Below the pieces are notes generated by a model. The model did no database searches. It was not told where the DNA came from and saw only the letters and a program-made list of their open reading frames with translations. Shown here in pieces: positions 495 through 56,270 of a DNA stretch of 64,000 nucleotides (position 1 is its first letter; every line of letters starts with the position of its first letter). Both the position numbers and the translations under genes were made by a program. The DNA is from Naegleria gruberi (Eukaryota), in assembly GCA_000004985.1 (NCBI GenBank), contig GG738921.1; one strand, 5' to 3'.

Positions 495-1694
495 ATGTCA
501 AAACGAGATCGGTCATCTCGCGAGCAAGAGGATGAACAAGAAGGAACTTTGTCTTCGGAAGAAGAAATTTTTGATGATACACCAACATTGATGAAAAATG
601 ATTTTTCAATGGAAAGGAAGAAGAAAAAAGTAAAACAAGCACCACCCTTTAATCTTGTCAAAATTACGCAAGATTACGATCAATCACATTATAAATGTGT
701 TCAACTAGGAAATGATTATGATTCATATATGTTATTTTCGGCCAACAAAACGCCAACCAAAGAGATTAAAGAAGTGATATTCATGATGGAAACATTTCTA
801 CTTATTAGAACAGTTGAAAATAGAATATTTTACATGGATGAAATGATTGCACATGGAGAGGTGGATTGCAGCAAGATCATTGATAAGAGTTCAATTTTGA
901 AACTTGTGGCAACCTCTTCATCTGCCTATTTACTAACAAAGAGCGGAATTTATGTGTATGCTCGTGGTACTCATTCATTTGAACCTTCCTTTTCAATTGA
1001 AAATCATGATGAGGAGTTTGTTGATATTTCAGCATCTTTTGTTGATAACTTACTGATTCTAACAAGTGAGAATAGAATTTTAACAACTGGTTGGAATAAG
1101 TTTGGAATGTTGGGAGATGGCACAACCAAAAGCAAATATCACTCATTAGTTAATCCTGAAACAAGTCATACTCATCGTGTAAAGATTATAGTGAGTGGAT
1201 CATGCTTTAGTCTTTACACAAGTGGCAGCTCTTTATTTGCATGTGGAGAATTGTATAATATTGGAAGTTCTGCATGTGTCTCCAAGTTTGAAAGACAATC
1301 TCATTTCAAATTCGAAGCGTCAGATGTGGAACAGATCATTGCCAAACCTTTATTTACCTGTTTTTGGACGAAACAACATGATTTACATATTTACGGAAGG
1401 GGATTTTATACCAAACTCAATCTTAATCAAAATATTTACTCAATAGCTGTGCTTTACACCAACATATTCTGCTCATATAAGAATGGAAATGAAATAACAC
1501 AAACAAGACATGAACATGTTTCAAATGGAGAGTTTACAACAGAGGTTGTGACTGGAAAGTATAATGTCAAGTGGTTCAATTCTGTTTGTGTTGGTTCCAA
1601 CTCAATGTTGCTGTTTTTCACAAAACCACAGGAGGAGTCAATATTTAAAAAAGTAATTACCAATTTTTTTGACATCATAGTCGATTCTTCATGA
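495..1694 (+). CDS. RCC1-like repeat protein (regulator of chromosome condensation family); single exon.
   Basis: Continuous ORF; the first real ATG is at 495 in an A-rich context. Gly-rich beta-propeller repeat motifs are present (TGWNKFGMLGDGTTKSKYHSL, FACGELYNIGSS). Confidence 0.45.
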   Translation: MSKRDRSSREQEDEQEGTLSSEEEIFDDTPTLMKNDFSMERKKKKVKQAPPFNLVKITQDYDQSHYKCVQLGNDYDSYMLFSANKTPTKEIKEVIFMMETFLLIRTVENRIFYMDEMIAHGEVDCSKIIDKSSILKLVATSSSAYLLTKSGIYVYARGTHSFEPSFSIENHDEEFVDISASFVDNLLILTSENRILTTGWNKFGMLGDGTTKSKYHSLVNPETSHTHRVKIIVSGSCFSLYTSGSSLFACGELYNIGSSACVSKFERQSHFKFEASDVEQIIAKPLFTCFWTKQHDLHIYGRGFYTKLNLNQNIYSIAVLYTNIFCSYKNGNEITQTRHEHVSNGEFTTEVVTGKYNVKWFNSVCVGSNSMLLFFTKPQEESIFKKVITNFFDIIVDSS

Positions 1695-2279
1695 CCAGGT
1701 TTCAAATATTTTGCTTTGTCAAAGACGCCCTACTTGAAAATTCAAAATCAAAACGATGAGGCACTGACCATTCCATAATCAAAAGTGTAAAGCACTTGAG
1801 TTTTTAGATGTGTCCTCAATTTTAAATTTTAAGAAATATTCAAAGTTTAAGTAAAATGTACAGTAGTAAGAATGATATAAATTTCTATGCTTTTTTCATA
1901 AAACACATTAATACATGCGTTAAAGATGACATCTAGAGTTAGTCATTTACTAAGATCTGGATCGTAAATAGTTTGGAGATATATCTCCTCTGAGAAGAAA
2001 ATGAACCTCAAGCGTGCGTATTAAAAAACACGTATTGGTTGAAATGAATAACATTCATTCCTTCCTCACGAATGGAAACTTTCTAGAAAGCATAAAGATT
2101 GAAAAAGAGAAACTTCAAGGTTTAGGACTTACCGACAGCTCACTATTCAATGTTTCCATCGCAATAAGACCATTCTACAGTAAATACGCACGCTCCAACA
2201 AGCATCCATAACAATAATTTCCTATAAAAGGAACTTCCGTGTTGAAACAAACTTCCACAACAAAAAAACACAAAAAAAA

Positions 2280-3392
2280 ATGGTCATCCTCTCAAACAGA
2301 AGAATTTTACTTGTTGCTCGTCCGGAAAACACACCAAAATCTGCTCATTTCACACTGAGTGAACCAGTACAGGAAATCAATTCTGAAACTTGCCTAAACG
2401 AAGGTGAAATTCTTGTGAAAACCTTATTCCTCTCAGTGGATCCCTATTTACTCATGCCAATGGGAAGAAAGGGAGTGCATCCTGATGTGGTTCCTAATCA
2501 AACTCCATATCCATTGAAACAATTCAAGGATGCAGCAATTATTGCCAATGTTGGAGATGTGTTTGGAGGAAGAGGTGTTGGACACGTGGTTGCCACCAAA
2601 CATGATGATTACAAGGTTGGAGATTTGGTTGCTGCTGATTATAGATGGCAAGAATATGCAATTATTAGTGTAAAATCAGAGTTGACTTTTGAAAAATTGG
2701 AAAATGAAATATTTAGTCAAGTTTCTCCATCAACTGCTTTGGGTGTTTTGGGAGTGAGTGGTTCCCATGCATTGTGGGGTTTCAATTTCGTCCTTCCAAA
2801 AGATGAGAAACCAATCGAAGGAAAGACAATTGTTGTGAGTGCTGCAGCTGGTAGTATTGGACTAACTGTTGCTCAATTGGCCAAAAACAAGGGTTTCCGT
2901 GTGGTTGGTATTGCAGGAGGTGAAGAAAAGTGTGAGAAATTGATTTCTGAATTTAAATTGGATGCCGTAGTTGATTACAAAAAGGCAAATGGTGACTTGA
3001 CCTTACTTAGTCAATTATTGAAAGAAGCAGCTCCAAATGGAGTAGATGCATTCTTTGATAATGTAGGAGGATTGGTTGCTGATGCAGTTTATGAAAATCT
3101 CAATTTGAATGCAAGAGTTTATTTTTGTGGAGCTATTTCACAATATGGAGAAGGAAAATCAGTTTTAGCTCCAGAGAAATACACAAATAATCCAAATATT
3201 ACAAGTATTACATGTTTACAAGCTGATTATATTAATAATATTCCACAAGCAAGAAGAGAACTCTTTGAATTGATTCAAAAAGGTCAATTGAAACCAGTTG
3301 AGTGGATTACTAAGGGAATTGAACAAACTCCAAAAGTTTTTGAGGAGATGTATGCTGGAAGAAACTTTGGTAAAACACTTATTCAAATTTAA
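2280..3392 (+). CDS. NADP-dependent oxidoreductase of the MDR superfamily, prostaglandin reductase 1 / leukotriene-B4 12-hydroxydehydrogenase / alkenal reductase-like.
   Basis: Uninterrupted 370-aa ORF. It has the family motif LSVDPYLLMP and a Rossmann segment VVSAAAGSIGLTVAQLAKNKGFRVVGIAGG. An AATAAA follows the stop. Confidence 0.8.
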   Translation: MVILSNRRILLVARPENTPKSAHFTLSEPVQEINSETCLNEGEILVKTLFLSVDPYLLMPMGRKGVHPDVVPNQTPYPLKQFKDAAIIANVGDVFGGRGVGHVVATKHDDYKVGDLVAADYRWQEYAIISVKSELTFEKLENEIFSQVSPSTALGVLGVSGSHALWGFNFVLPKDEKPIEGKTIVVSAAAGSIGLTVAQLAKNKGFRVVGIAGGEEKCEKLISEFKLDAVVDYKKANGDLTLLSQLLKEAAPNGVDAFFDNVGGLVADAVYENLNLNARVYFCGAISQYGEGKSVLAPEKYTNNPNITSITCLQADYINNIPQARRELFELIQKGQLKPVEWITKGIEQTPKVFEEMYAGRNFGKTLIQI

Positions 3393-3636
3393 ACTCTTAT
3401 TTTCTATTTCAATAAATTACAAAATTTGTTTCACATTAGAAATTGTAATAATTTTACATAAAAAATAAGGAAATACTTTTAAATAATAGTAATTTTAGTG
3501 ATCTATACAATATATTTCCTATTACTAAATCAAATCTATCCACAATACTACCTTTCGAACAAACTTTACAATAAAAAATAATTTTTGGAAGAATCTCTTT
3601 ATTAAAGCAGACTAAAAAATAACAAATCAATAAATC

Positions 3637-4511: not shown

Positions 4512-5492
4512 ATGGGTAATGTCATTCCTGTTAACACTCTCTTCTTGGGTATCGATGGAGCTGGTAAAGTAAGTAACATGAAATCTTTACATTTCGTCTA
4601 ATGTGTAAACTAATGTTTAAACTAATGTGTGTAAACTAAACTTTAGACCACCATCATCAACACTGGTATGAACAAATTCAAACAATTAAAACAAGAGCAA
4701 ATTGATGCTATACAACCAACTTTGGGACATGATTCAAAGAGATTTACAGTGGAAGGAGTTGAATTTATTTCATGGGATGTAAGTATTTGAAGAATTGAAC
4801 AAGTTTTCTAATAGTAGAAATTGTCATTGATTGAATGGTGTTGTTGTTTTGTTCATTGACTGCTCCAATAACAATAATAATAACAAATGTCATGTTGACG
4901 TGTAAAAAACTCGAAATCTTTGGATGATTTGAAAAAATATTAAAAAATTCGTGATGATATGAAAAATGGATTCGATTCTTGGCCATGACATGAATTTTTC
5001 TCACTATTTCTCACCACCATTGACAATACCACAACAACACATTGAACAATTCAATCACGACCACTTTGTTGCTTCCTATAGTTCCCTGGCAAGGAACAAC
5101 TTCGTTCCACATGGACTTCCTACTATAAACATGCTCAAGTCATTGTCTTTGTTGTTGACAGCTCTGATAGTGATGAACGTTTAGAAGAAGTTAAGGAAAT
5201 TCTCCACTCCATCATTCAAAATGTCCAATTACGTGAATGTTTGTTGTTGATTTTGGGTAACAAACAAGATTTGAATTCCACTAGAAATTTGGATAAATTG
5301 AAGGATACTCTCGGATTAGGAGGTAATTTAAGTGGATTACGTGATCGTACTTGGAAGATACTTACTTGTACTGCCAAAACTGGAGATGGTTTGGAAGATG
5401 CTTTCAAATGGTTGTCAACTGAAACAATGAAGGCCTATAAAAAGAGAGAAAGCAAGAAGAAGGAAGAAAAGAAGGAAGAAACTAAAAAATAA
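4512..5492 (+). CDS. ARF-like small GTPase (Arl family), three exons: 4512-4568, 4647-4778, 5082-5492.
   Basis: Exon 1 is MGNVIPVNTLFLGIDGAGK (P-loop GxDxAGKT), ending at a GTAAGT donor. Exon 2 ends ...FISWD, with a GTAAGT donor. Exon 3 reads FPGKEQLRSTW...LLILGNKQDL (G4 motif NKxD)...TAKTGDGLEDAFKWL. The phases are consistent and the protein is 199 aa. Confidence 0.8.
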
Positions 5493-5880
5493 TTGAACTA
5501 AGATGTTGTATTTCAATAAATCTAATTGTTAAATATCAAGACAGAGATCAATCGGTTTTAATTGAATATTGGGAGAAATATCCTATTGTTTCAAAGAAAA
5601 ACATGTTTAGGATAAATATTGAACTGAACTAAAATGTGATATCATAACAAGATGACACTTTGTTGAAAAATTTTAGTGCCATCTCACAGATTTGATCTCT
5701 CTTTCAACAATGCACCAATTGGATAACATTCTTTACAATTCAAATTCATCCCAATTTTTTGGTGCATTTTCCAATTTGAAATCCAAGTTCCAAACGAAAT
5801 TTAAAAATTCATCAAAAATTCCAAAAAATTCATAAAAAAAAATTCAAAACTTGAAATTTTCATCATTTCACTAATATAAA

Positions 5881-6988
5881 ATGTCTGCTCAATCCATTAG
5901 CTTTTCCAAGTATACAAAATTCGACAATCACTACAGAAAACAATACGTCGAATCGATCAAGACCCAAAATGAAGAGATGAGCAAGAAATTAAATCATCCA
6001 ATGGAATGGTATTGCTCCGAGAAGGTTCATGGTTGTAATTTGAGCTTTATTGTTGATAGAGTAAGGCAATCAGAGTATAAAGTAGAGGTTGCTAATCGTT
6101 CATGTGTTCTTTCACAATCATCAATGAGCTTTTATCCAAAAACAATTGAACAGTTGGAGAAAAAGTTTGAGTGGTGAATTGAATGAACAATTGAAATTGA
6201 AGAGTGTTCAAATTTATGGTGAATTATTTGGTGGATTATTCCCAAATAAGAAACCTTCAGATGCTAAGGCAATTCAAAGTGGAATTCACTATTGTCCACA
6301 TCATGATTTTTATGCTTTTGATGTTCTTCTCGGATTTGAGAATGGAAAACAATCTTGGGCTGTTTTTAACAATGTTGATCCATTGTTGGATGAGTGTGGA
6401 TTCAAAGTGAGAGCTCAACCATTGTTTAAGGGAACTTTGGACGAATGTTTGGAGTTTGATGTTAAATTTAACACTAAATTACCAGAAACTTTCTATCCAG
6501 AAATTGTAAAGGAAAGAAATGCTTCCTGGAAGGATTTGGATAATATTTGTGAAGGTGTTGTCATCAAACCAACCAAGTACAATATCTTTGTGGAAACTGA
6601 AAGAGCTGTAATCAAGAAGAAGAATGAAAAATTCTTGGAAACTGAAGCTAGTGATAAACCACAACAACCAGTGAAAAAGGAAAAGGGTGACTCTGAAGAG
6701 CTAGTTCAGGTATGGAATGAACTCTCACGATACATTACCTCCAATCGTTTGGATAATGTTCTCTCAAAGATTGGAAACCTCACCAAGAGTAACATGTTCC
6801 CAGTTATGAAGGAATTCTCAAATGATGCCCTCGAAGAATTTAAATTAGATTTGGAACGTGGTGCTTTGGAAAATTGTAAACCAGTTTCTTCACTTTCAAG
6901 TGAAGATCAGAAAAAGCTCACTAAAAAGATCAATGATGCTTGTATGGTTTTAATTAAGGAACAATTAAACAAACCATCATCAGAATAA
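5881..6988 (+). CDS. ATP-dependent RNA ligase of the Rnl2 family (phage T4 gp24.1 / kinetoplastid REL-like). The reading frame is broken once, at an A5 run at 6160-6164.
   Basis: The nucleotidyltransferase motifs are all present: motif I EKVHGCNLSF (KxHG), motif III HHDFYAFDV, motif IV EGVVIKP, motif V AVIKKKNEKF. The Rnl2-specific C-terminal domain is also present (SDKPQQPVKKEKGD...NRLDNVLSKIGNL). The N-terminus aligns with T4 Rnl2 (KYTKFDNHYRKQYVESI against KYSSLENHYNSKFIEKL; EWYCSEKVHGCNLSFIVDR against EWVAREKIHGTNFSLIIER). Supplied ORFs 5881-6177 and 6146-6988 are the two frames. Removing one A from the run restores a continuous 368-aa protein. Confidence 0.8.
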
Positions 6989-7098
6989 AGTGCAAGTTGA
7001 CTATTTCGAATAAAAGTGGTGTTACTGAAATAATTTACAATTTTTTGTTTTTTGAATACAAATTGCAATTTATTGATTATTTACCATACAATAACCAT

Positions 7099-7386
7099 TC
7101 AATAATTACGGTGTTTACCCTCATAGGTATGATAAACCTCTACTCTGTCTTGTTGTGGTACAGTATCGCTTCTTTTTTGATGGTCTGGAAAGTTTTGTAG
7201 GTGTTGTCTTAAATTGCCATGAATGTTACCAGTGGCAGCACACTTATGTCCTTGTGGGGTTTGACTACTAATGGGGTTATTTTGAGATTTAATTTGACTA
7301 CTTGTTTGGGAGTTATTTTGAGATTTAATTTGGCTACTTGTTTGGGAGTTATTTTGGCGACCAGTTTGGGATTTATGTTGAGTCAT
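7099..7386 (-). CDS. Possible small S/Q-rich protein (95 aa) encoded across a 36-bp tandem repeat. Low confidence.
   Basis: The ORF starts at an ATG, and the repeats encode NNSQTSSQIKSQ twice. It is divergent from the 7625 gene start. There is no homology support. Confidence 0.15.
   Translation of the reverse strand: MTQHKSQTGRQNNSQTSSQIKSQNNSQTSSQIKSQNNPISSQTPQGHKCAATGNIHGNLRQHLQNFPDHQKRSDTVPQQDRVEVYHTYEGKHRNY
7273..7382. repeat. About 36-bp tandem repeat with 2 full units plus a diverged third unit.
   Basis: The unit gggagttattttgagatttaatttg[a/g]ctacttgttt occurs back to back. The third copy has degenerated. Confidence 0.7.
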
Positions 7387-7624
7387 TTTGTTTCTGGCTT
7401 GTTTTATTTATTTTAACATACCACGTTTAACATCAAAACTTTTATTATAAAGAACTTTTGAGCCAAAAGGGAGACTTCATTTTTGGACAATTTCTTAATT
7501 TATGAAATTACTAGCTCAAGAGAAGCCCAAGACGAGTCAAGGATTTATTTGGTGTTGGTGAGCCTTTAAATTGAACCAATGACAATAAGGATATTGTTAA
7601 GAAATTTTAAAAAATCAGAAAAAA

Positions 7625-9562
7625 ATGCTCAACACTGAAACCAAGCTAACCTTCCATCATGCAATTTTCGAATTATCGGAAGGCTACTTTTTCATTGATC
7701 AAATTCTTCCATTCTTTTCTTTCAATGATTTGGAAAATTTATTTCTCACCTCCAAACATATTGCCGAGTTGGTGAGCAGACAACATCACATTGATTATTT
7801 AGCTGTTTTTAATGCTGGACTTGCACATTATTCATCATCGGGGAATCGGAATAGATGGATTGATTCAACTCCTCCGAATGAATTTCCATCACTGCTGCAA
7901 TTTGCAAATGGAATAAAAGTGATGATTGAAGCAGAGGGATCATGGCTGATTGAATATATTATTGGTTATTGTCGGAAGGTGAATAAGTTATTCAGTATTT
8001 CATATGATAAATATATTTATAATTGGTCACAAATGGATTTATCACTGATTAAGAATATTGAGGAGTTTGGACTTGTCAGGTTGGACATGTATAATTTTCC
8101 AAAATTTATGCCATTGTTTGAGGGAAAGAAAGTGAAACAGATTAAATTATCTATGGGATATATTTATCAAGATATCTTTGAACAGACTAGACCTGTTTTA
8201 GATAAGATCAATTTCAAGGAATTATATTATTCCATTTCATGGGTTTCTTCATTTAATATACTGAGTGAAGGTCTATCTAAGGAAGATTTAGATTTTAGAA
8301 ACAAGATAAAGATTTCAGTAGGTGATGTCGGGATAGATCAACACCATTATAGTTCGCTGAAAAACATTTCTAAATGTTTCGAGTTTAGTTCAATTACAAT
8401 TGAGAATGCTACAAAAAAAGAGGAGGATTATAGCGACCACAAATTTGACCTATTTTCAAAATCATACACCTTGAAAGCAGCTTTTTTAACCAAAGTACAG
8501 TCACTTGCATTGCCTAAATTCTCAAATACTGAGCCTTCAGCAATAGAAATGCATAATATTGAATTAGCTCTCAATAGTGCAAACATTGATACTTTTCATG
8601 TGCTACACACGACGAAATATTTAACAGAATTGAAATTGCAGGACTGTCACATTGATTTTTCAGATATTGATGCAATTGACTTGAAATTATTGAATAATAT
8701 GGTTTTGAATAGATGTAAATTTGTAAAGAATGGAAAACAATCAAATTTGGAATTTATTGAATGTATTAGTGCACCTAAACTCACAAATCTAACATGTGGT
8801 GACCTGTCGTTAAAATCAATTCCAATGATTTCAAAGAGTATCACCACTTTAAAATTAGGCAAGAATGAAATTGAAAATATCGAATTGGAAAGGTTAGATT
8901 CTATGAAAGGATTGACTAGTTTGGATTTATCAAATAACAAGTTAAATGATTTAAAAAACGTTCAGTCGATTATTGGAAAATTCAAGGACCTGAAATTGAA
9001 TGGAAATCCAATCTTTAAACGTATGATGATTAACAAAAACAAACTAGAATTTATTAACGATGACTGTAAACATGATGTTAAAAGATCGAGTAAGCTAAAC
9101 ACAAAACCAAAATTTTCTGGAACAGATGTGGAAATTATCAAACAATTCAGAATCATTATCTCTCAGAGAGATTATCCACACTGTGTTGAAAGGAAGGATT
9201 TTCTTAAACTAATTTCAAATCCAAAAAAACCAAACAGCTTGGACGAAACAAATGTGATTTTCTGGAACCATCACTACAGCAACAGTCAAACATCATTGTC
9301 AAAAGATGGAAATACCACATTTGTTGGAACTAATTTTACAAGCTTTTGTCAAGTTGCCATCTATCTAAACAATTATTTACAACACGAGTTTTGCTCTAAA
9401 TGGTATTTTTTCGGTATTAATGGAACAGATAATATTGAGCCACTGCATAATAGAGAATTGCTAAATGAGGTGTCCTATATTGTGCATGAATGGTCCTTTG
9501 TTTCCTCTCACATTGAATTTGTTAGAGAATTGAGAAGAAAATATCCTTCGAATTCTTTCTAA
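7625..9562 (+). CDS. F-box-like / leucine-rich-repeat protein (645 aa).
   Basis: The N-terminus has an F-box-like segment (FHHAIFELSEGYFFIDQILPFFSFNDLENLFLTSKHIAELV). C-terminal LRRs are present (LTSLDLSNNKLNDLKNVQSIIGKFKDLKLNGNPI). Single ORF from an ATG to TAA. Confidence 0.6.
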   Translation: MLNTETKLTFHHAIFELSEGYFFIDQILPFFSFNDLENLFLTSKHIAELVSRQHHIDYLAVFNAGLAHYSSSGNRNRWIDSTPPNEFPSLLQFANGIKVMIEAEGSWLIEYIIGYCRKVNKLFSISYDKYIYNWSQMDLSLIKNIEEFGLVRLDMYNFPKFMPLFEGKKVKQIKLSMGYIYQDIFEQTRPVLDKINFKELYYSISWVSSFNILSEGLSKEDLDFRNKIKISVGDVGIDQHHYSSLKNISKCFEFSSITIENATKKEEDYSDHKFDLFSKSYTLKAAFLTKVQSLALPKFSNTEPSAIEMHNIELALNSANIDTFHVLHTTKYLTELKLQDCHIDFSDIDAIDLKLLNNMVLNRCKFVKNGKQSNLEFIECISAPKLTNLTCGDLSLKSIPMISKSITTLKLGKNEIENIELERLDSMKGLTSLDLSNNKLNDLKNVQSIIGKFKDLKLNGNPIFKRMMINKNKLEFINDDCKHDVKRSSKLNTKPKFSGTDVEIIKQFRIIISQRDYPHCVERKDFLKLISNPKKPNSLDETNVIFWNHHYSNSQTSLSKDGNTTFVGTNFTSFCQVAIYLNNYLQHEFCSKWYFFGINGTDNIEPLHNRELLNEVSYIVHEWSFVSSHIEFVRELRRKYPSNSF

Positions 9563-9601: not shown

Positions 9602-10484
9602 TTAAACTTTATTATCAGCTCCGTAAGGTTGATTTGGTTGGGCATAATAATTAGGTTGTGGATCCACAACTCCTGGTTGACCATATCCTTGATTAGCAGT
9701 AGGATATGGTTGACCATAACCACCTTGTGGTTGTCCATAGCTTTGATTAGGATTATAAGGTTGAGCTGTTTGATTTGGATTATACGGTTGACCATAACCT
9801 GGTTGACCATAAACCTCTGATGATGGATTGTAATAAGGTTGTTGTTGACCTACTACTGGTGGTTGTGTTTGATTTGAATAATAAGGAGTTGAAGTGTAAC
9901 CACCTGGTTGTTGAACTGCCAAATTTGGTTGCATTTGGCCAACTGTTGTCGTGGTTGATTGAACAGTTGTGGTTGCAACTGGGATTGGAGTGGTGACAGT
10001 TGTGGCAGCTGCCAAATCACTTCTTGACATACCATCTGCGATATTCTTCATGATAATGAACATTCGAATACCTGCAATGACGGACGAAATTCCAGCAATG
10101 ATCAATACAATGCCAATAACACCCAAAACAATTGGAGTGGTAATTCCAGAGCATGATGTGCTGGAATTGGTTGTCACAGCAAGACATGCTATAATGAATA
10201 CAAAGTTTAGTCAAGTTTCGAATAATTTCAAAAATTGATTATTAGAAACAAGATAATGAATTAGTTTTCAACAGATCAACAAGAAACCTACCTGCATACA
10301 ATGCACCAACGGCAATCGCAGCAATTCCTAGAGCAATACCAATCAAGATGGAAACAACTCCTGAGATAATTGTGGCAAGTGGTTTAGTTCTTCTGTTTCC
10401 AATAACTATTCCTCCTCCTACGTGATGATTTACATGATGATGGTGATGATGACCGTGTCGTCCATGGTGATGGTGGTGAGCCAT
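9602..10484 (-). CDS. Membrane protein with a His-rich N-terminus (MAHHHHHGRHGHHHHHH), two TM helices and a P/Q/G/Y-rich tail. Two exons: 10484-10292 and 10188-9602.
   Basis: Donor cag|GTAGGT at 10291 and acceptor cattatag at 10189. Splicing joins ORFs 10242-10484 and 9602-10177 in frame (259 aa). The tail carries GYGQP/QPGYGQPYNPNQ repeats. Confidence 0.6.
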
Positions 10485-31505: not shown

Positions 31506-34500
31506 ATGGAAAGTTATTGTTCATTGGATGAAGACAAGATGATGATGTATTCAAAGAAGCCGGATAATAGTAATGATAACGATAATAGTACTGGAACACA
31601 AACATCATCAAATTGTGGATGTATTGAAAATAATAACAATGATGAAGAAGTAGAACAACAACATGCTGACCAGCAACAACAACAACAGAAAATAGATAAT
31701 GATGAATTGTTAATGGAAATGATTCTAAATAACATACTGCCTATTAATGATAGCAGTGATGATAGTATTACAGCAATATCATCATCCTCAGCAAAATTAT
31801 TATCTAATAATTATTATAATACAGAAAGTAACAATAATTTATCTACCGAAGAAGAACCATCATCATCAACAATGGAAGAAGAGCAAGCTACACTATTGGC
31901 TGATGAAGAATCTGCCAATTATAACATTATCTCTGATTCTTGCTCTACTACATCATCTAACAACTCTAATAACACAACATGCTCAACAAGCACTAATTAT
32001 AATCATCACAAACAACAACATGATGATAAGGACGACAACATGCAATGTAAATACAATGAGAGACAAAGAAGAGCCCTTGCTCTACTGATGGCCATCAGAG
32101 ACAAATATGAGAAAAACCTTGAAAAGAGTAGTAAGATAACAACAACAAGTGGAGGATCTTTATATTCATCTAAAAGGATGAGTTCAACGAGAATAACAAC
32201 TAACACGAGCACAACAGCAGCATGTTCTTCATTCAAAACAATGCTCAAACTTGCACTCGTGTTGATAGTTGGAGTGTGGTGCGTCTTATCATTCATGAGT
32301 GACGTTATAATACTTGATGATTATGCAGCAAGTGGTTTTCATCATCGTTATGAATATTTGGAAGATGATTTCTATGAATTCAATCATAATAATATAATGT
32401 TTGTGATGGCGGAACCACCTGGCATTTCGCCCCAAGCCCTAAAGGAAATACTAAGCAGAGAATCGGAAATTATGAGGCAAGAACCGATATACAATGATTT
32501 TAGCTTCAGTTCCTTATTTTCAATGAATGGTTTACATAGTTTAGCAAGCAAGGCAACTGACTTTTTGCAGAGGGGTGGTTTTGAATCGAGTGCTGATGTG
32601 GCAACTCAATGCCTGATTAATAGTCCGAGAAAATGTGACAACTCTAGGAAATTACAATTGATTCAATTCAACTGGCTTGGACCAACTGTAAATGCTAATG
32701 TTGCCAAGATTGTCCTAGAGGAAATGTTGGGAATATGTGCAGAAATTGTAACAATGAATGTAACTCATGCTCTTGAAGAGATGGCAGAATATGGAACGAG
32801 AAGATCATATGCCATGCTTGAATTTTGGAGTGAATCTAGAAAATTTCAATACGACAAGTATGTTGTCAATGATAAGACTATAATGGGTAAGTTGATATCC
32901 ACCACAATATCAAAAACTAATTCAAATCAAAAATTCAAATTACTATTTTGACAGATGTTGGTGAGTTAGGTATCAATGCAAAGTTGGGTTGGTACATTTT
33001 AGGTTTCATGAAGGATGAGTATGACCTTATCGACGAATACAGAGAGTATAGAACTGAGAAGGCAGCTCACTACCTTGCAACTAACGATACCTATCCACTT
33101 GGTAGGTTTATAGGAGGAGCAAAGAGCTGGATCACTTTTGATCAACAAATTATAACAAATCTCAAGCTCAATCTCCAGATACAATATACACAGGAAGAAA
33201 ATGCAGAGGATTTTCTGATTTCAAAAATTCAAGAAGCAAACGATAGAAAAGAACCAGTATTGTTCTATCTTTGGTATCCTCATCAAATTTTCAAAAAGCT
33301 GTCTATTAAGAATGTTTACCTTCCTCCTAGTTCAGAAAGTTGTTGGACCTCTTACAATCAAGAGAATCAACTCATTGATTGTGACTATCCAACAGAGTTA
33401 TTGAGAAAATTGGTCTCCCCAAAACTCACAGAGGATATGGTTCTCAACTCCTTCTTTTCCAAATTTGCCTATGAAAGTACAGATCAAATAGATATTTTGG
33501 CAGATATTGTGTTTCAGGAAATGTCAGTAGTTGATGCATCTTGTAAGTGGCTGAGAAATAACACAAAAAGAGTAGCTTATTGGGTATCTGATCATAATGA
33601 TACCTCCAGTAGTGTGATTGGTATAGTGATTGCATCTCTGTTTGTCATTTCGCTCTTCTTCTGTACTATATTTATTACTGGTTTGGTGCTTTACTTTATG
33701 TATAGAAAGAATTTGAGAAAGAGATCTCTTAAATATGCCCCAAGAACAACACCATTCACTCTAGTTTTTACAGATATTCAAAACTCTACACTTTTGTGGG
33801 CTACTGCCTCTGAAACGATGAAATCAGTACTGTCTATTCACAACATTATTATGAGGTCAAACATTCAAAAGTACAAGGGTTATGAGGCCAAGACAGCAGG
33901 TGATAGTTTCACTGTGGCATTTGTTGATCCGTTGTGTGCACTGGCTTTTTGCATTAGTGTTCAGAAGGATTTATTGCTGGCCAATTGGCCTTCTGATTCT
34001 CTTCTACTTCCTGATATGAAGGAAGTTAGGTGGAATGAAAGCTTGATTTACAGAGGTCCTAGAATTAGAATGGGAATACATGCGGGATCTGATTGCAATA
34101 TTCAAATTGACAAAAAGACGCAACGTATGGAATATGTGGGCAATATGGTTCATATTGCTAACAAGATTGAGGCATCATCAGTTGGTGGCAGAATTTATGT
34201 TTCAGGTGCTTTTGTCCAAGCTATCAAGAGTAGATTAATGTTGTTTGATTCTGCTTCCAACTCTAGTAATCCAAAGACTTCCAAAGAAGATGTAACTACA
34301 TCTGCCAACACTCAATATTATGATGATTCCTCTGATAAAGGAATAAGCAAATACGTGCAGGAATTGAATAATAACTTGATTGAATTTGAAGATCTAGGAC
34401 CTAAGCAAGAAATTGAAATTGGAGGAACAAAGATACCCTTATTTATGGTAAAAGATTTTAGCTTTGCAAGAACATCTTGGATTCAGCAATTCGAAAGAGT

Positions 34501-34756
34501 TCTAGAAGAGTCACCAGTAGAAGAACAAAAAGTAATTGGCCAAAAATTGGACCTGATTGAAGAGGTGGAAAAGTTTATTACAGATCCGGGCTCATTCCCA
34601 GCTGAAAGAAAGTCAAAATTAATATATGACTTTATCAACCACACCTCCGATGCTGAGCTCAATCTTCCATCATGGAATAGCAAGTATTTTATTGATTTAT
34701 TCGACAATGTCTTCCGTTACATTACTACCCAACATGTAAACATTAAGGAAGAATAA
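31506..34756 (+). CDS. Receptor-type class III adenylyl cyclase (about 1060 aa). Two exons: 31506-32886 and 32955-34756.
   Basis: A 68-nt intron has donor g|GTAAGT and acceptor ttttgacag, joining phase 1. The N-terminal roughly 240 aa are N/Q/S/D-rich. TM1 is LALVLIVGVWCVLSF. A roughly 400-aa luminal/extracellular domain follows, then TM2 (VIGIVIASLFVISLFFCTIFITGLVLYFMY), then the cyclase domain. The cyclase domain has the first metal Asp in FTDIQNST, the second Asp in KTAGDSFTVAF, and the N/R pair in VGNMVHIANKIE and GPRIRMGIHAG. Confidence 0.75.
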
Positions 34757-52463: not shown

Positions 52464-53763
52464 ATGAACTCGCTTAGCCTTAATCTTACTTTGCATTGCG
52501 GAAGAGATCTTCCAAAGGTAAGAAGAAATTTCATCACAATTTGATTTTTTAATGTTTTAAAATTCTCTATTGATTTGTTTACCATATGATGATGTTGTTG
52601 TTATTAATTGCATTGAATTTATGATCATCATTTAGGCCGATTTGTTATCTTCGATTGATGCCTATGCTGTTGTTATTGTTCCGATTATTGGAGGACAAAC
52701 CAAAACATTTAAAACAAAATGTGTGCAAGATGACCCAAATCCTGATTGGGAATTTGATTTGTTCTGTACAGATGTGGATGGAACCAGAGATTGTCTTGTT
52801 GAAATTTGGGATGAAGATACTTTGAGAAATGAAAAGGTTTGCACTGCCATACTTTCTCTTGTTGAGTTGAAATCATCAGGCACATGGCTTGGAAAGCATA
52901 TAGTCTTGAAATGCTTATCTGGATTCAAACCATTCAAGGGAGCTAAAGAGTGCTGTATTATCGTATCAGCAAGTGCTCACATTTCTTTTGCTGACCTCAC
53001 TCGCAAAATCACATCTCCAAACAAGTATGTGGATCCATCAAAAAAGACTATTGTCTTCCCTTTCTCACCTCATGGTGACAATACTCAACTCTATATTAAA
53101 ATTTCAGCTGGAAAGAGATTCAAGATTTCGGTTTTGGACACTTCAGAATTTAGAACAAGACTTGTCATGTTTGAAGTTGCTGGAAAGAATATCACTTCTC
53201 AAATTATCAAACTCAAAGAACCAAAGAAAAAGTATGGAATTAGCTATTATAGAAAGATTAAGATGAAGAAGGCTGACATTAAATCATGGACAAGCGTCAA
53301 TCTTTTGGTTTCTAATTGTTCACTAGTTGCAACAAAGGGTGTGGAAGCTATTGTAAATGAACATGGCTGGTATGGATCCATGACCTTTGATCAAGCTAAA
53401 AAGACTTTGAAAAATATTATTGTGGATGAGGAATCTAAGAGTATTTTCATGCTGGAAAACAACTTTAGCTATATGGTGGACTTTGATTCAGACAACTTTG
53501 ACCAAAAGGTTTGTCTCTCTGATGAATACTCAGCTCAAGGATATCATGTCGAGTTTGTATATGCAAAGGGAAATAGATTGAGTATCACTTCACATGGAGA
53601 ACCAAGAGTTCAAACCAATACAAGAGTAGTATATAGATATTCTTCACAAGTGAAAGACTCTGAATACGGCACTCCATTCTTCCAATTCAGTGTTGAACTC
53701 TATCACAAGATACAACCACAACTTTACCAACTCAACAGCTATATTCCTTTAAGTTTGAATTAA
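52464..53763 (+). CDS. C2-domain protein (exons 52464-52517 and 52636-53763; 393 aa).
   Basis: Exon 1 (MNSLSLNLTLHCGRDLPK) ends at a GTAAGA donor. A 118-nt intron ends at atcatttag. Exon 2 (ADLLSSIDAYAVVIVPIIGGQTKTFKTKCVQDDPNPDWEFDLFC...) completes a C2 beta-sandwich signature. Confidence 0.65.
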
Positions 53764-56270
53764 ACTTTATTTTGTTGATCTATGAAAAACCTGCTCTTTA
53801 CACATGTATTGGAACATTCAAGCAAGATAGATTGTGTCGAAGGAGTAATCAAGGAAAGGAAATAATCATAATCACTCCTTAGTTCTTCAGATGCGAATGC
53901 AAAATTGAGAGCTGAGGATGAAACAGCCATTCTAACAATATCCTTATCATTTCTTAATCTATTAGATGCGAAAGCTAAAGATGTTGAATCTGAACTGACT
54001 GCCAATTTGACAATTTCTTCTGTATCTCTTATTCTATCAGATGCATACTTTAGCAGCGAACCACTATTCTTCAAAATGAGAAGCATAAACTTTGTGTCAT
54101 CATTTAAATTCAATAACAATTTCTCAATAATATGGCTATCAATACTTTCATGAAACCGTAAAATAGAGGCAATAATTGACTGTGATAGATTTTGTGGATC
54201 TACATGTGCAAAAATTCTACCATGACGTCCACAAGAGGTTAAAATTGTATCCAGTAAATCTTCATCCTCATAATTGAGCATTTCAAAAGAAAAATTGTCG
54301 TATGGGTAGAAAACACCAGAATATATCTTGATGATATTCACGTGACTTGAATTAAAGTAGGCAAGGGATGCTTCTTGTAGCCGTTTCACAAAGGGAAGGT
54401 AAATCTCTCCCATATTGCAAAAAAAGTAATTCGTACCCTTAACTGATTTGGAGCATGGATCCATGCAATAGAGAGCATATTCACCATAATAATCCAATAA
54501 TTTTTCATTGAAATGATCTCCATAGATGGAAATAAAGTATTCTCTATCAAAAAATAGCATTGGATGAGCATATTGCAATGAGGGTTTCTTTTGTGATGGT
54601 GGCCTGAGCTGTTGATGAAGTAAGACAAGCTCGGTCTTGAATTCATCCTTTCCAAAAGAACGACAAATAATCATCTCATAAACTTTTTCCTCTCTAAATC
54701 CTTGTTTCAATGCCATATTTACACATTCCTTAATTATTTCAATGTTTCCCCTTAATGATCTCGAAAAATTTGCAAATGAGAGAGCATTTCTGCTTGTGGC
54801 AAATCTCATAAATTCTGAATTGTTCTTTAAATTATCAGAAGCAAACTCTATTATTCTCCAATCAATATCATACATCTGTTTGACAAATTCAAAGTCATCT
54901 CTCAATTCCAAAGTAGCACACTTAAAAAATGTATAGCTCCTTCTCACCAACAGTTCAATAAGATGATGATTAGATCTTAATTCTTTAGGAAATTGCATTG
55001 CCGTTTTTAAATCAAATGCTGGTAGAATTGATTTGATGAATTCTGCATTCTTCCTTATTGAATCACCAAATAAATTCAATATACTTCCATTTTTAGATAA
55101 AAGTTCTTTAGCAACAGAAATGGAATTACGAATCTCTTTCGATACAAACTCAATCAATTCGTGTTCCCTCTTCAATATTGGTAGTATCAAATCTAAATTG
55201 CTCCTCAATCTCTCAGATGCATATTTGAGGGCTTTTGGGTAGAGTCTTGTGACAATTTGTAAAATCTCCTCGTCATCTACCTCAAAGGATCCATCAAAAA
55301 CATTTTTCAATACACCTAAATCATCTTTGGCATACCTGACTACTTCCTTGATGGTGAAAAATCGTTTTGGAATGAAAGAGGGTGGCAATAGCTCCTTCTC
55401 AACTACCATTCTCCAAAATTCTTCTCCTTGTGGTTGGTAGAGTTGTGAAAATTGCTTGTTGTTATCCTTGTTCATTACCAATTTGAGAGCTAGCTCTGAA
55501 TATATCTCCTTTTTAATCCATTTACATACGTTCAACTCTCCATTCTCCAGTGCAGTGCCTACTATCTCTGGGTCTGCTTTAAATTTTGAATTTGAATATC
55601 TGAGCACTGATCCGTAATATTTTACAGCTTGTAACACCAATTCCCTATTCGACTTGATTTCTTTTGCCTTCTTTTTCAATTCTGTATCATTTCTCAATTT
55701 TTCACACGTCACATATTTGAATATTCTTGTAGTAAACCTAAACAATCCAACAATTCCCAACTCATCCTCATCAGAAAAATCAATTTTTCTCCTCACTTTC
55801 TGCAAATCATTTCCACACTCAGATAAATCCAAAGCAGCTTCCAATAATTCTCTATCAGATCGTAACTCTTTACTGGCAGAACGAAAGCAAACCTGATGCT
55901 CCTTCACCACACTCATCATAAACTGCCTATCACTCGTCAATTGCTGTGATGCATATCTAATCAACCACCCTCTCAACATGATCAATTTCTTCATAAATCC
56001 AAAATCATTATTTTCAATCAATGGAAATCTTTTCACAAAACATCTCACCGAATAATTATCCTCACACTTTTTCAAACATTCAATATATTCCATCTTTTTT
56101 TTAAATAATGCTAATTGATCAATTAATCGGAATTTTCGTAATTTGTGGAAATTAATATTGTGTGAGTAGAGGTTGGAATTCTTGCATGGTTCCGAGAGGT
56201 CATCGAGTAGAATAATAACTGGTTCTCGCCATGATGATGATGGTACCATCATTGGCATGGTTGTGTCCAT
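53760..56270 (-). CDS. DUF4116-repeat protein (836 aa).
   Basis: It has at least 6 copies of the roughly 35-aa DUF4116-type motif, e.g. NRELVLQAVKYYGSVLRYSNSKFKADPEIVGTAL and TEEIVKLAVSSDSTSLAFASNRLRNDKDIVRMAV. Single ORF from an ATG. Confidence 0.55.
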   Translation of the reverse strand: MDTTMPMMVPSSSWREPVIILLDDLSEPCKNSNLYSHNINFHKLRKFRLIDQLALFKKKMEYIECLKKCEDNYSVRCFVKRFPLIENNDFGFMKKLIMLRGWLIRYASQQLTSDRQFMMSVVKEHQVCFRSASKELRSDRELLEAALDLSECGNDLQKVRRKIDFSDEDELGIVGLFRFTTRIFKYVTCEKLRNDTELKKKAKEIKSNRELVLQAVKYYGSVLRYSNSKFKADPEIVGTALENGELNVCKWIKKEIYSELALKLVMNKDNNKQFSQLYQPQGEEFWRMVVEKELLPPSFIPKRFFTIKEVVRYAKDDLGVLKNVFDGSFEVDDEEILQIVTRLYPKALKYASERLRSNLDLILPILKREHELIEFVSKEIRNSISVAKELLSKNGSILNLFGDSIRKNAEFIKSILPAFDLKTAMQFPKELRSNHHLIELLVRRSYTFFKCATLELRDDFEFVKQMYDIDWRIIEFASDNLKNNSEFMRFATSRNALSFANFSRSLRGNIEIIKECVNMALKQGFREEKVYEMIICRSFGKDEFKTELVLLHQQLRPPSQKKPSLQYAHPMLFFDREYFISIYGDHFNEKLLDYYGEYALYCMDPCSKSVKGTNYFFCNMGEIYLPFVKRLQEASLAYFNSSHVNIIKIYSGVFYPYDNFSFEMLNYEDEDLLDTILTSCGRHGRIFAHVDPQNLSQSIIASILRFHESIDSHIIEKLLLNLNDDTKFMLLILKNSGSLLKYASDRIRDTEEIVKLAVSSDSTSLAFASNRLRNDKDIVRMAVSSSALNFAFASEELRSDYDYFLSLITPSTQSILLECSNTCVKSRFFIDQQNKV

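Follow-up and report, generated by a model that had tools for sequence, protein, structure and literature searches.

The gene at positions 5881-6988 (+) of the 64,000-nt stretch of Naegleria gruberi nuclear DNA analyzed here (hereafter the window) is best explained as a resident N. gruberi paralog of the Rnl2 RNA ligase family that a 68-bp deletion has broken and probably turned into a recent pseudogene or a null allele, a reading to which we assign a probability of roughly 70%. In the assembly the frame is broken and the deletion is present, relatives carry independent lesions of their own and the gene falls within a heterolobosean clade; an earlier ligase activity and its subsequent loss are what we infer from these observations. 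The best database match of the locus is a 342 aa protein (P0001) named "RNA ligase [Naegleria gruberi]" (EFC37142.1 / XP_002669886.1 / D2W189). That this gene belongs to the Rnl2 family is already published and not new. Unciuleac and Shuman (RNA 2015, PMC4408790), the only literature that we found to cite XP_002669886.1, described 13 classic ATP-dependent RNA ligases and two RtcB enzymes in N. gruberi (15 in total) and listed XP_002669886.1 and XP_002679286.1 among five Rnl2 members. The value of the present finding is mainly corrective, with no new kind of biology: one of the five counted Rnl2 ligases, XP_002669886.1 / D2W189, appears to be a patch over a frameshifted locus and to lack motif Ia. 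The locus also hints at turnover within the large RNA-repair gene set of Naegleria.

Four further sequences were central to the analysis. L001, an ENA metagenome contig and the source of protein P0002, is ~98-99% identical to the window outside indels. L002 and L003, which come from one shared sample, are the contigs of P0003 (~84% amino-acid identity) and P0004, respectively. The intact N. gruberi paralog is XP_002679286.1 (P0238, 402 aa).

The outer coordinates of the gene proposed in the initial annotation were correct, with an ATG at 5881 and a TAA at 6986-6988, and Pfam and Foldseek searches upheld its identification as an Rnl2-family ligase with both domains. The 5' coding part (5881-6165 (+), frame 1, residues 1-95) is supported by the ORF list, by the N-terminal PF09414 (RNA_ligase) match and by alignment with T4 Rnl2. 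It contains the N-terminal segment FSKYTKFDNHY, motif I (EKVHGCN, 6019-6039; pattern KxHGxN), in which the putative adenylylated lysine nucleophile K48 (codon 6022-6024) aligns with T4 K35, and motif Ia (ANRS), in which R73 (codon 6097-6099) aligns with T4 R55. The remainder of the nucleotidyltransferase (NTase) domain and the linker to the C-terminal domain lie in the +1 frame (6170-6685 (+); PF09414, 9e-12). This part carries motif III (YGELFGG, 6215-6235; Glu 6221-6223, equivalent to T4 E99), motif IIIa (FYAFDV, 6308-6325; T4 F119 and D120), motif IV (EGVVIKP, 6551-6571; T4 E204 and K209) and motif V (IKKKN, 6611-6625; T4 K225 and K227). The all-helical Rnl2 C-terminal domain, a short tail and the TAA follow at 6686-6988 (+), and this domain matches PF18043 (T4_Rnl2_C) at ~6686-6946 (7.1e-28, profile positions 2-81/82). 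In a multiple alignment, equivalents of T4 E34, K35, H37, N40, R55, E99, F119, D120, E204, K209, K225, K227, R266 and D292 (the last two in the C-terminal domain) were all present, divided over the two reading frames of the window copy. Arg55 apart, we take these to be the residues that matter according to the mutational literature on T4 Rnl2.

When the joined translation was compared with the sequences of solved structures, the best match was T4 Rnl2 2hvq (1.3e-17, residues 8-321); phmmer also matched it to 1s68, which comprises T4 Rnl2 residues 1-249 (1e-11), and to TbREL1 1xdn (1.3e-7). P0002, which is 99% identical to the window gene, was used as a stand-in for the window product in structural comparisons. 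Its AlphaFold model (pLDDT 91.8) had T4 Rnl2 (2hvr, 1s68 and 2hvq) and TbREL1 (1xdn) as its top five Foldseek matches in the PDB (4e-18 to 9e-16), followed by NgrRnl (Rnl5) and other ligases at ~1e-5. Judged from its sequence, the locus is a genuine Rnl2-family RNA ligase gene, with homology far beyond chance. Motif I, motifs Ia-V and the helical C-terminal domain are present at the locus and the Rnl2 fold is present in the P0002 model, while one continuous coding sequence is missing, given the 68-nt deletion and a TGA at 6175-6177. The locus is thus most likely a disrupted member of the Rnl2 family, either a pseudogene or a null allele.

T4 RNA ligase 2 (RnlB, gp24.1; 2HVQ, 2HVR and 1S68) has the same architecture of NTase motifs I-V followed by a helical C-terminal domain and is the top match of the locus by both sequence and fold, yet the identity is only ~27%. 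The heterolobosean proteins differ from it between motifs Ia and III, where they have a longer helix and an insert, and are nearer to bacterial-type Rnl2 ("GTLDECL", "GELFGG") than to T4. The window copy differs from it further in being frameshifted. Full-length collinearity with T4 Rnl2, as initially described, therefore stands only in part: both domains and all motifs align, but they do so in two frames and across a 68-nt deletion. The gene had been read as one ORF because the two frames were joined and the break between them was overlooked.

In the ORF list, frame 1 is open over 5881-6177 and the +1 frame over 6146-6988. Pairwise and four-way DNA alignments with L001, L002 and L003 show a gap of 68 nt in the window at 6165/6166, a length that is not a multiple of 3. 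The missing codons comprise GPMSIQLFESIERVLPKWAELD and a part of L. A 4-nt direct repeat, TTTG, flanks the deleted unit, and one copy of it is left at the deletion junction (6166-6169 (+)); a loss flanked in this way bears the signature of slippage or of a microhomology deletion. The premature frame 1 TGA at 6175-6177 (+), which ends ORF 5881-6177, is a product of the frameshift. Because the protein sequence that the missing codons encode is conserved in L002, L003 and N. lovaniensis, the difference is a deletion in the window and not an insertion or intron in the relatives. A relative-specific intron was rejected on the further grounds that the 68 nt are in frame and do not have GT..AG ends. 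A tiny intron or homopolymer sequencing error at ~6150-6175 was likewise ruled out, as the alignment with L001-L003 reveals a 68-nt coding deletion. In the AlphaFold model of P0002, the deleted residues (97-119) are located within a confidently predicted helix of the NTase domain (86-117). Besides shifting the frame, the deletion is therefore predicted to take out approximately two-thirds of a core NTase helix.

The RefSeq protein arrives at 342 aa by a different route. We enumerated all frame-restoring GT..AG removals at the locus, and the sole removal that gave the length of P0001 was a 79-nt segment at 6075-6153 (+); joining 6074 to 6154 reproduces the RVRQS-DWRKSLSGE of P0001. If this or another short segment is indeed spliced out, the gene could be functional as annotated and encode a shortened but active ligase. 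The GT..AG boundaries are present, the frame is restored, and RefSeq and UniProt currently carry this model. Nevertheless, we consider such an enzyme improbable for several reasons. First, 6075-6153 encodes EYKVEVANRSCVLSQSSMSFYPKTIEQLE, including the motif Ia arginine; its T4 Rnl2 counterpart, Arg55, contacts the substrate 5'-PO4 (PMC6379707), and the spliced product would lack this arginine. Second, together with the 68-nt deletion, the removal would cost the NTase core ~50 residues, among them most of helix 86-117. Third, the same bases are conserved in-frame coding sequence in the relatives (most differences in L001 and L002 being synonymous), and their removal from L001-L003 would break the frames of these genes. 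Fourth, the donor GTATAAAG is unlike the GTAAGT donor of the neighboring ARL gene. A few shorter GT..AG removals of 31-52 nt (for example, 6153-6204) would restore the frame and keep motifs Ia and III and may be used, although their donor sites are poor. We judge the 79-nt "intron" to be an artefact, probably a detour taken by the gene predictor around the frameshift. XP_002669886.1 is unsafe to clone or to count as a working enzyme unless it is checked; for study, the L002-type ortholog and XP_002679286.1 offer intact forms.

The relatives of the window gene have lesions of their own. L001 carries an AAG to TAG nonsense codon in the C-terminal domain (~1397-1399), and L003 carries a 10-nt deletion just before motif V (~1520) and a 1-nt deletion in the C-terminal domain (~1810), all of these being read from metagenome assemblies whose coverage at the lesions is not established. 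L002 has an intact ORF of 400 codons. Three sequences (the window, L001 and L003) are hence disabled in different ways. Apart from its deletion, the window ORF is flawless, and dN/dS values calculated by the Nei-Gojobori method are low: 0.087 for the window and L001 (8 synonymous and 3 nonsynonymous changes), about 0.12-0.16 for either of these and L002 or L003, and 0.26 for L002 and L003. Such low values suggest that constraint was lost only recently, and they indicate purifying selection through most of the history of the gene, with the lesions being recent.

These same values bear on whether the deletion exists in the organism at all. It could be an artefact of assembly or of the clone library, or the state of one haplotype, with N. 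gruberi keeping a functional Rnl2 at this site. One clean deletion between 4-nt repeats is the kind of event that cloning can also produce; the closest relative, L001, carries the 68 nt; and outside the deletion the ORF is intact, with every catalytic residue kept and little nonsynonymous divergence from L001. On the other hand, the size of the deletion is untypical of a base-calling error, the RefSeq model likewise rests on the deleted sequence and no data conflict with the assembly. Furthermore, inactivation of this paralog is evidently tolerated, given that two relatives carry other, independent disabling mutations. We therefore regard an artefact or haplotype state as unlikely. A scan of JGI metagenomes with a conserved 26-mer recovered no independent copy of the deleted allele, and look-ups of the RefSeq protein, of the 98-aa ORF1 product and of XP_002679286.1 gave no further record of it.

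The proposed history of a ligase gene broken by deletion can be set out as follows, with the chemistry of the intact ancestral protein predicted by homology. ATP would adenylylate Lys48, the AMP would pass to the 5'-phosphate at a nick, this phosphate being held by the motif Ia arginine, and attack by the RNA 3'-OH would seal nicks in duplex RNA or RNA:DNA; the helical C-terminal domain would be needed for the full sealing reaction. The 68-bp deletion between the two TTTG repeats would shift the frame after residue 95 and remove most of the core helix, so that the assembled gene could yield nothing but an N-terminal fragment of 98 residues or, after splicing, a crippled protein. With its frame broken and a core helix deleted, this copy is doubtful as a working RNA-repair enzyme of the kind proposed initially. 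The loss would be tolerated because N. gruberi has, in XP_002679286.1, a sister paralog that is still intact, as well as many other RNA ligases described in the literature.

A broader reading, which we offer tentatively as less likely than not, is that at least three independent knockouts have hit this paralog lineage in the N. gruberi species complex and that the RNA ligases of Naegleria as a set undergo rapid birth-and-death turnover. The 68-bp deletion, the nonsense codon and the two frameshifts, together with an old, multi-paralog heterolobosean Rnl2 clade, are the observations behind this suggestion. If it is true, the unusually large set of RNA ligases in Naegleria would not be a stable housekeeping set, and a possible driver of its turnover would be conflict with RNA-cleaving toxins or viruses.

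To place the gene, neighbor-joining trees (Kimura-corrected distances, ~330 columns, 200 bootstraps) were built from heterolobosean, kinetoplastid, phage, named bacterial and metagenomic Rnl2 proteins; these are distance trees and not maximum likelihood trees, and TbREL1 was entered as a fragment transcribed from the structure-sequence alignment. A Heterolobosea-only clade comprising Naegleria, Willaertia, Acrasis and one Logan contig was recovered with 81-85% bootstrap support. The kinetoplastid RELs formed their own clade (98.5%), which joined cyanobacterial-type Rnl2 at ~72%, and the T4-like phage proteins formed another (97-99%). No supported sister group of the heterolobosean clade was found in these trees. 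The Rnl2 genes of Heterolobosea thus form a clade of their own, apart from both the kinetoplastid editing ligases and the T4-like phages. The window gene, in agreement with the initial annotation, was placed outside the editing-ligase clade.

Within Heterolobosea, the window gene and L002 lie on a long branch that is sister (100%) to a group supported at 96% and made up of N. fowleri, N. lovaniensis and Willaertia proteins and the intact N. gruberi XP_002679286.1. XP_002679286.1 and its N. fowleri and N. lovaniensis orthologs have the same motifs and C-terminal domain as the window gene at 40-46% identity, and they represent sister paralogs within a Naegleria/Willaertia Rnl2 clade (joint clade 100% bootstrap). 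These genes are intact (402-437 aa), whereas the window lineage is long-branched and repeatedly disrupted. The groups also differ in context, as the N. lovaniensis ortholog directly precedes an Rnl1-type ligase gene and the window has no such gene. In the N. lovaniensis contig (L004, PYSW02000017.1), the Rnl2 gene (5001-6242) and the same-strand Rnl1-type ligase gene (PF09511, 6334-7731) form a head-to-tail pair separated by 92 nt, and a PiggyBac-like DDE_Tnp_1_7 gene is located upstream of Rnl2 at 1591-3524. The Logan contig in the heterolobosean clade (L011, SRR3715733) has a GC content of 25%, and its protein, P0010, groups with Willaertia paralog b at 66% bootstrap; this contig is probably from another, unsampled protist.

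Two known ligase types were compared with the gene in addition to T4 Rnl2. The kinetoplastid editing ligases REL1/REL2 (1XDN) share the Rnl2-family NTase fold with it (Foldseek 9e-16; phmmer 1.3e-7), but they form a separate clade in which the window gene was never placed in the neighbor-joining trees (200 bootstraps), and the window protein begins at the conserved N-terminus, without a presequence-like extension. NgrRnl (Rnl5; 5COT and 5COU) is a classic ATP-dependent nick-sealing ligase from the same organism (PMC4408790). It has an N-terminal domain in addition to the NTase domain and no C-terminal domain, while the window gene has PF18043 and its fold match to NgrRnl (1e-5) covers the NTase core only. 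Two candidate discriminating features were tried and discarded. "GTLDECLxFDV" is not a Discoba-specific signature, since it is found in TbREL1 but is widespread in bacterial Rnl2, and PF18043 does not separate T4-like from REL-like proteins, since some RELs also score. The editing ligases P0122 (Angomonas deanei) and P0129 (Bodo saltans) have precomputed PF18043 matches.

It had been proposed that the gene was phage-like rather than editing-ligase-like and that it was horizontally acquired to serve in RNA repair or tRNA-restriction repair. The first part of this comparison is sound only insofar as the gene lies outside the REL clade; phage proteins (1406 records) are just 26-30% identical to it and the T4-like ones belong to a separate clade. 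Recent acquisition of a phage- or virus-derived Rnl2 by the amoeba would be in keeping with a domain architecture identical to that of T4 Rnl2, with the reported scarcity of Rnl2 enzymes in eukaryotes (PMC4599027) and with closest relatives outside Heterolobosea that include a protein from a phage-like contig with numerous small, unannotated ORFs. However, the nearest non-heterolobosean proteins show 33-35% identity (none is above 35%), the gene groups with Naegleria, Willaertia and Acrasis paralogs without a supported phage sister, and the copy is frameshifted. Its base composition is also not foreign: gene GC is 0.347 and GC3 is 0.313, in comparison with neighbor means of 0.346 and 0.304. 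Neither closeness to T4-like phages nor nesting among them was found. We consider a recent viral origin very improbable, and the claim of recent acquisition could not be sustained against a multi-paralog clade that spans Heterolobosea. The gene is neither REL-like nor specifically T4-phage-like. Given the low identity outside the clade (≤35%), the Heterolobosea-wide paralogs and the host-like composition, any horizontal transfer would be ancient.

The surroundings of the gene are those of an ordinary nuclear locus, as first described. Among its neighbors are an Arf/ARL gene whose intron has a GTAAGT donor, RCC1-like, F-box/LRR, Ras, PheRS-beta and actin genes, a cyclase gene, and RGS, C2 and START genes. 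The flanks recur in L001, an independent assembly, with the ARL gene ending upstream of the ligase gene and the LRR gene downstream of it. These eukaryotic neighbors and shared flanks exclude contamination or chimerism, including the chimeric contig that had been raised as an alternative. No synteny with the window was detectable for L002 and L003 outside the coding region, and neither a second Rnl2 gene nor any Rnl1 gene was found in the 64-kb window.

Between the Rnl2 stop codon and the LRR gene (7625-9562) is a segment of ~600 nt (7008-7606) that is missing from L001. Within it are a tandem repeat of 36 nt (7272-7356) and, on the minus strand, a repeat-rich ORF of 95 aa (7099-7386); the window has no second copy of the segment. 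Further downstream, the ORF at 9602-10177 (-) resembles an unannotated 217-aa gene (L004 4171-4824) directly upstream of the N. lovaniensis Rnl2 gene (tblastx 4e-11). This likeness may be a remnant of microsynteny, although the two Rnl2 genes are assigned to different paralog lineages in the tree. Elsewhere in the window, a 602-aa ORF at 32948-34756 (+) combines an OpuAC-like domain, a bacterial periplasmic glycine-betaine-binding type, with an adenylate/guanylate cyclase catalytic domain, and an 836-aa ORF at 53760-56270 (-) contains seven DUF4116 repeats (8e-60).
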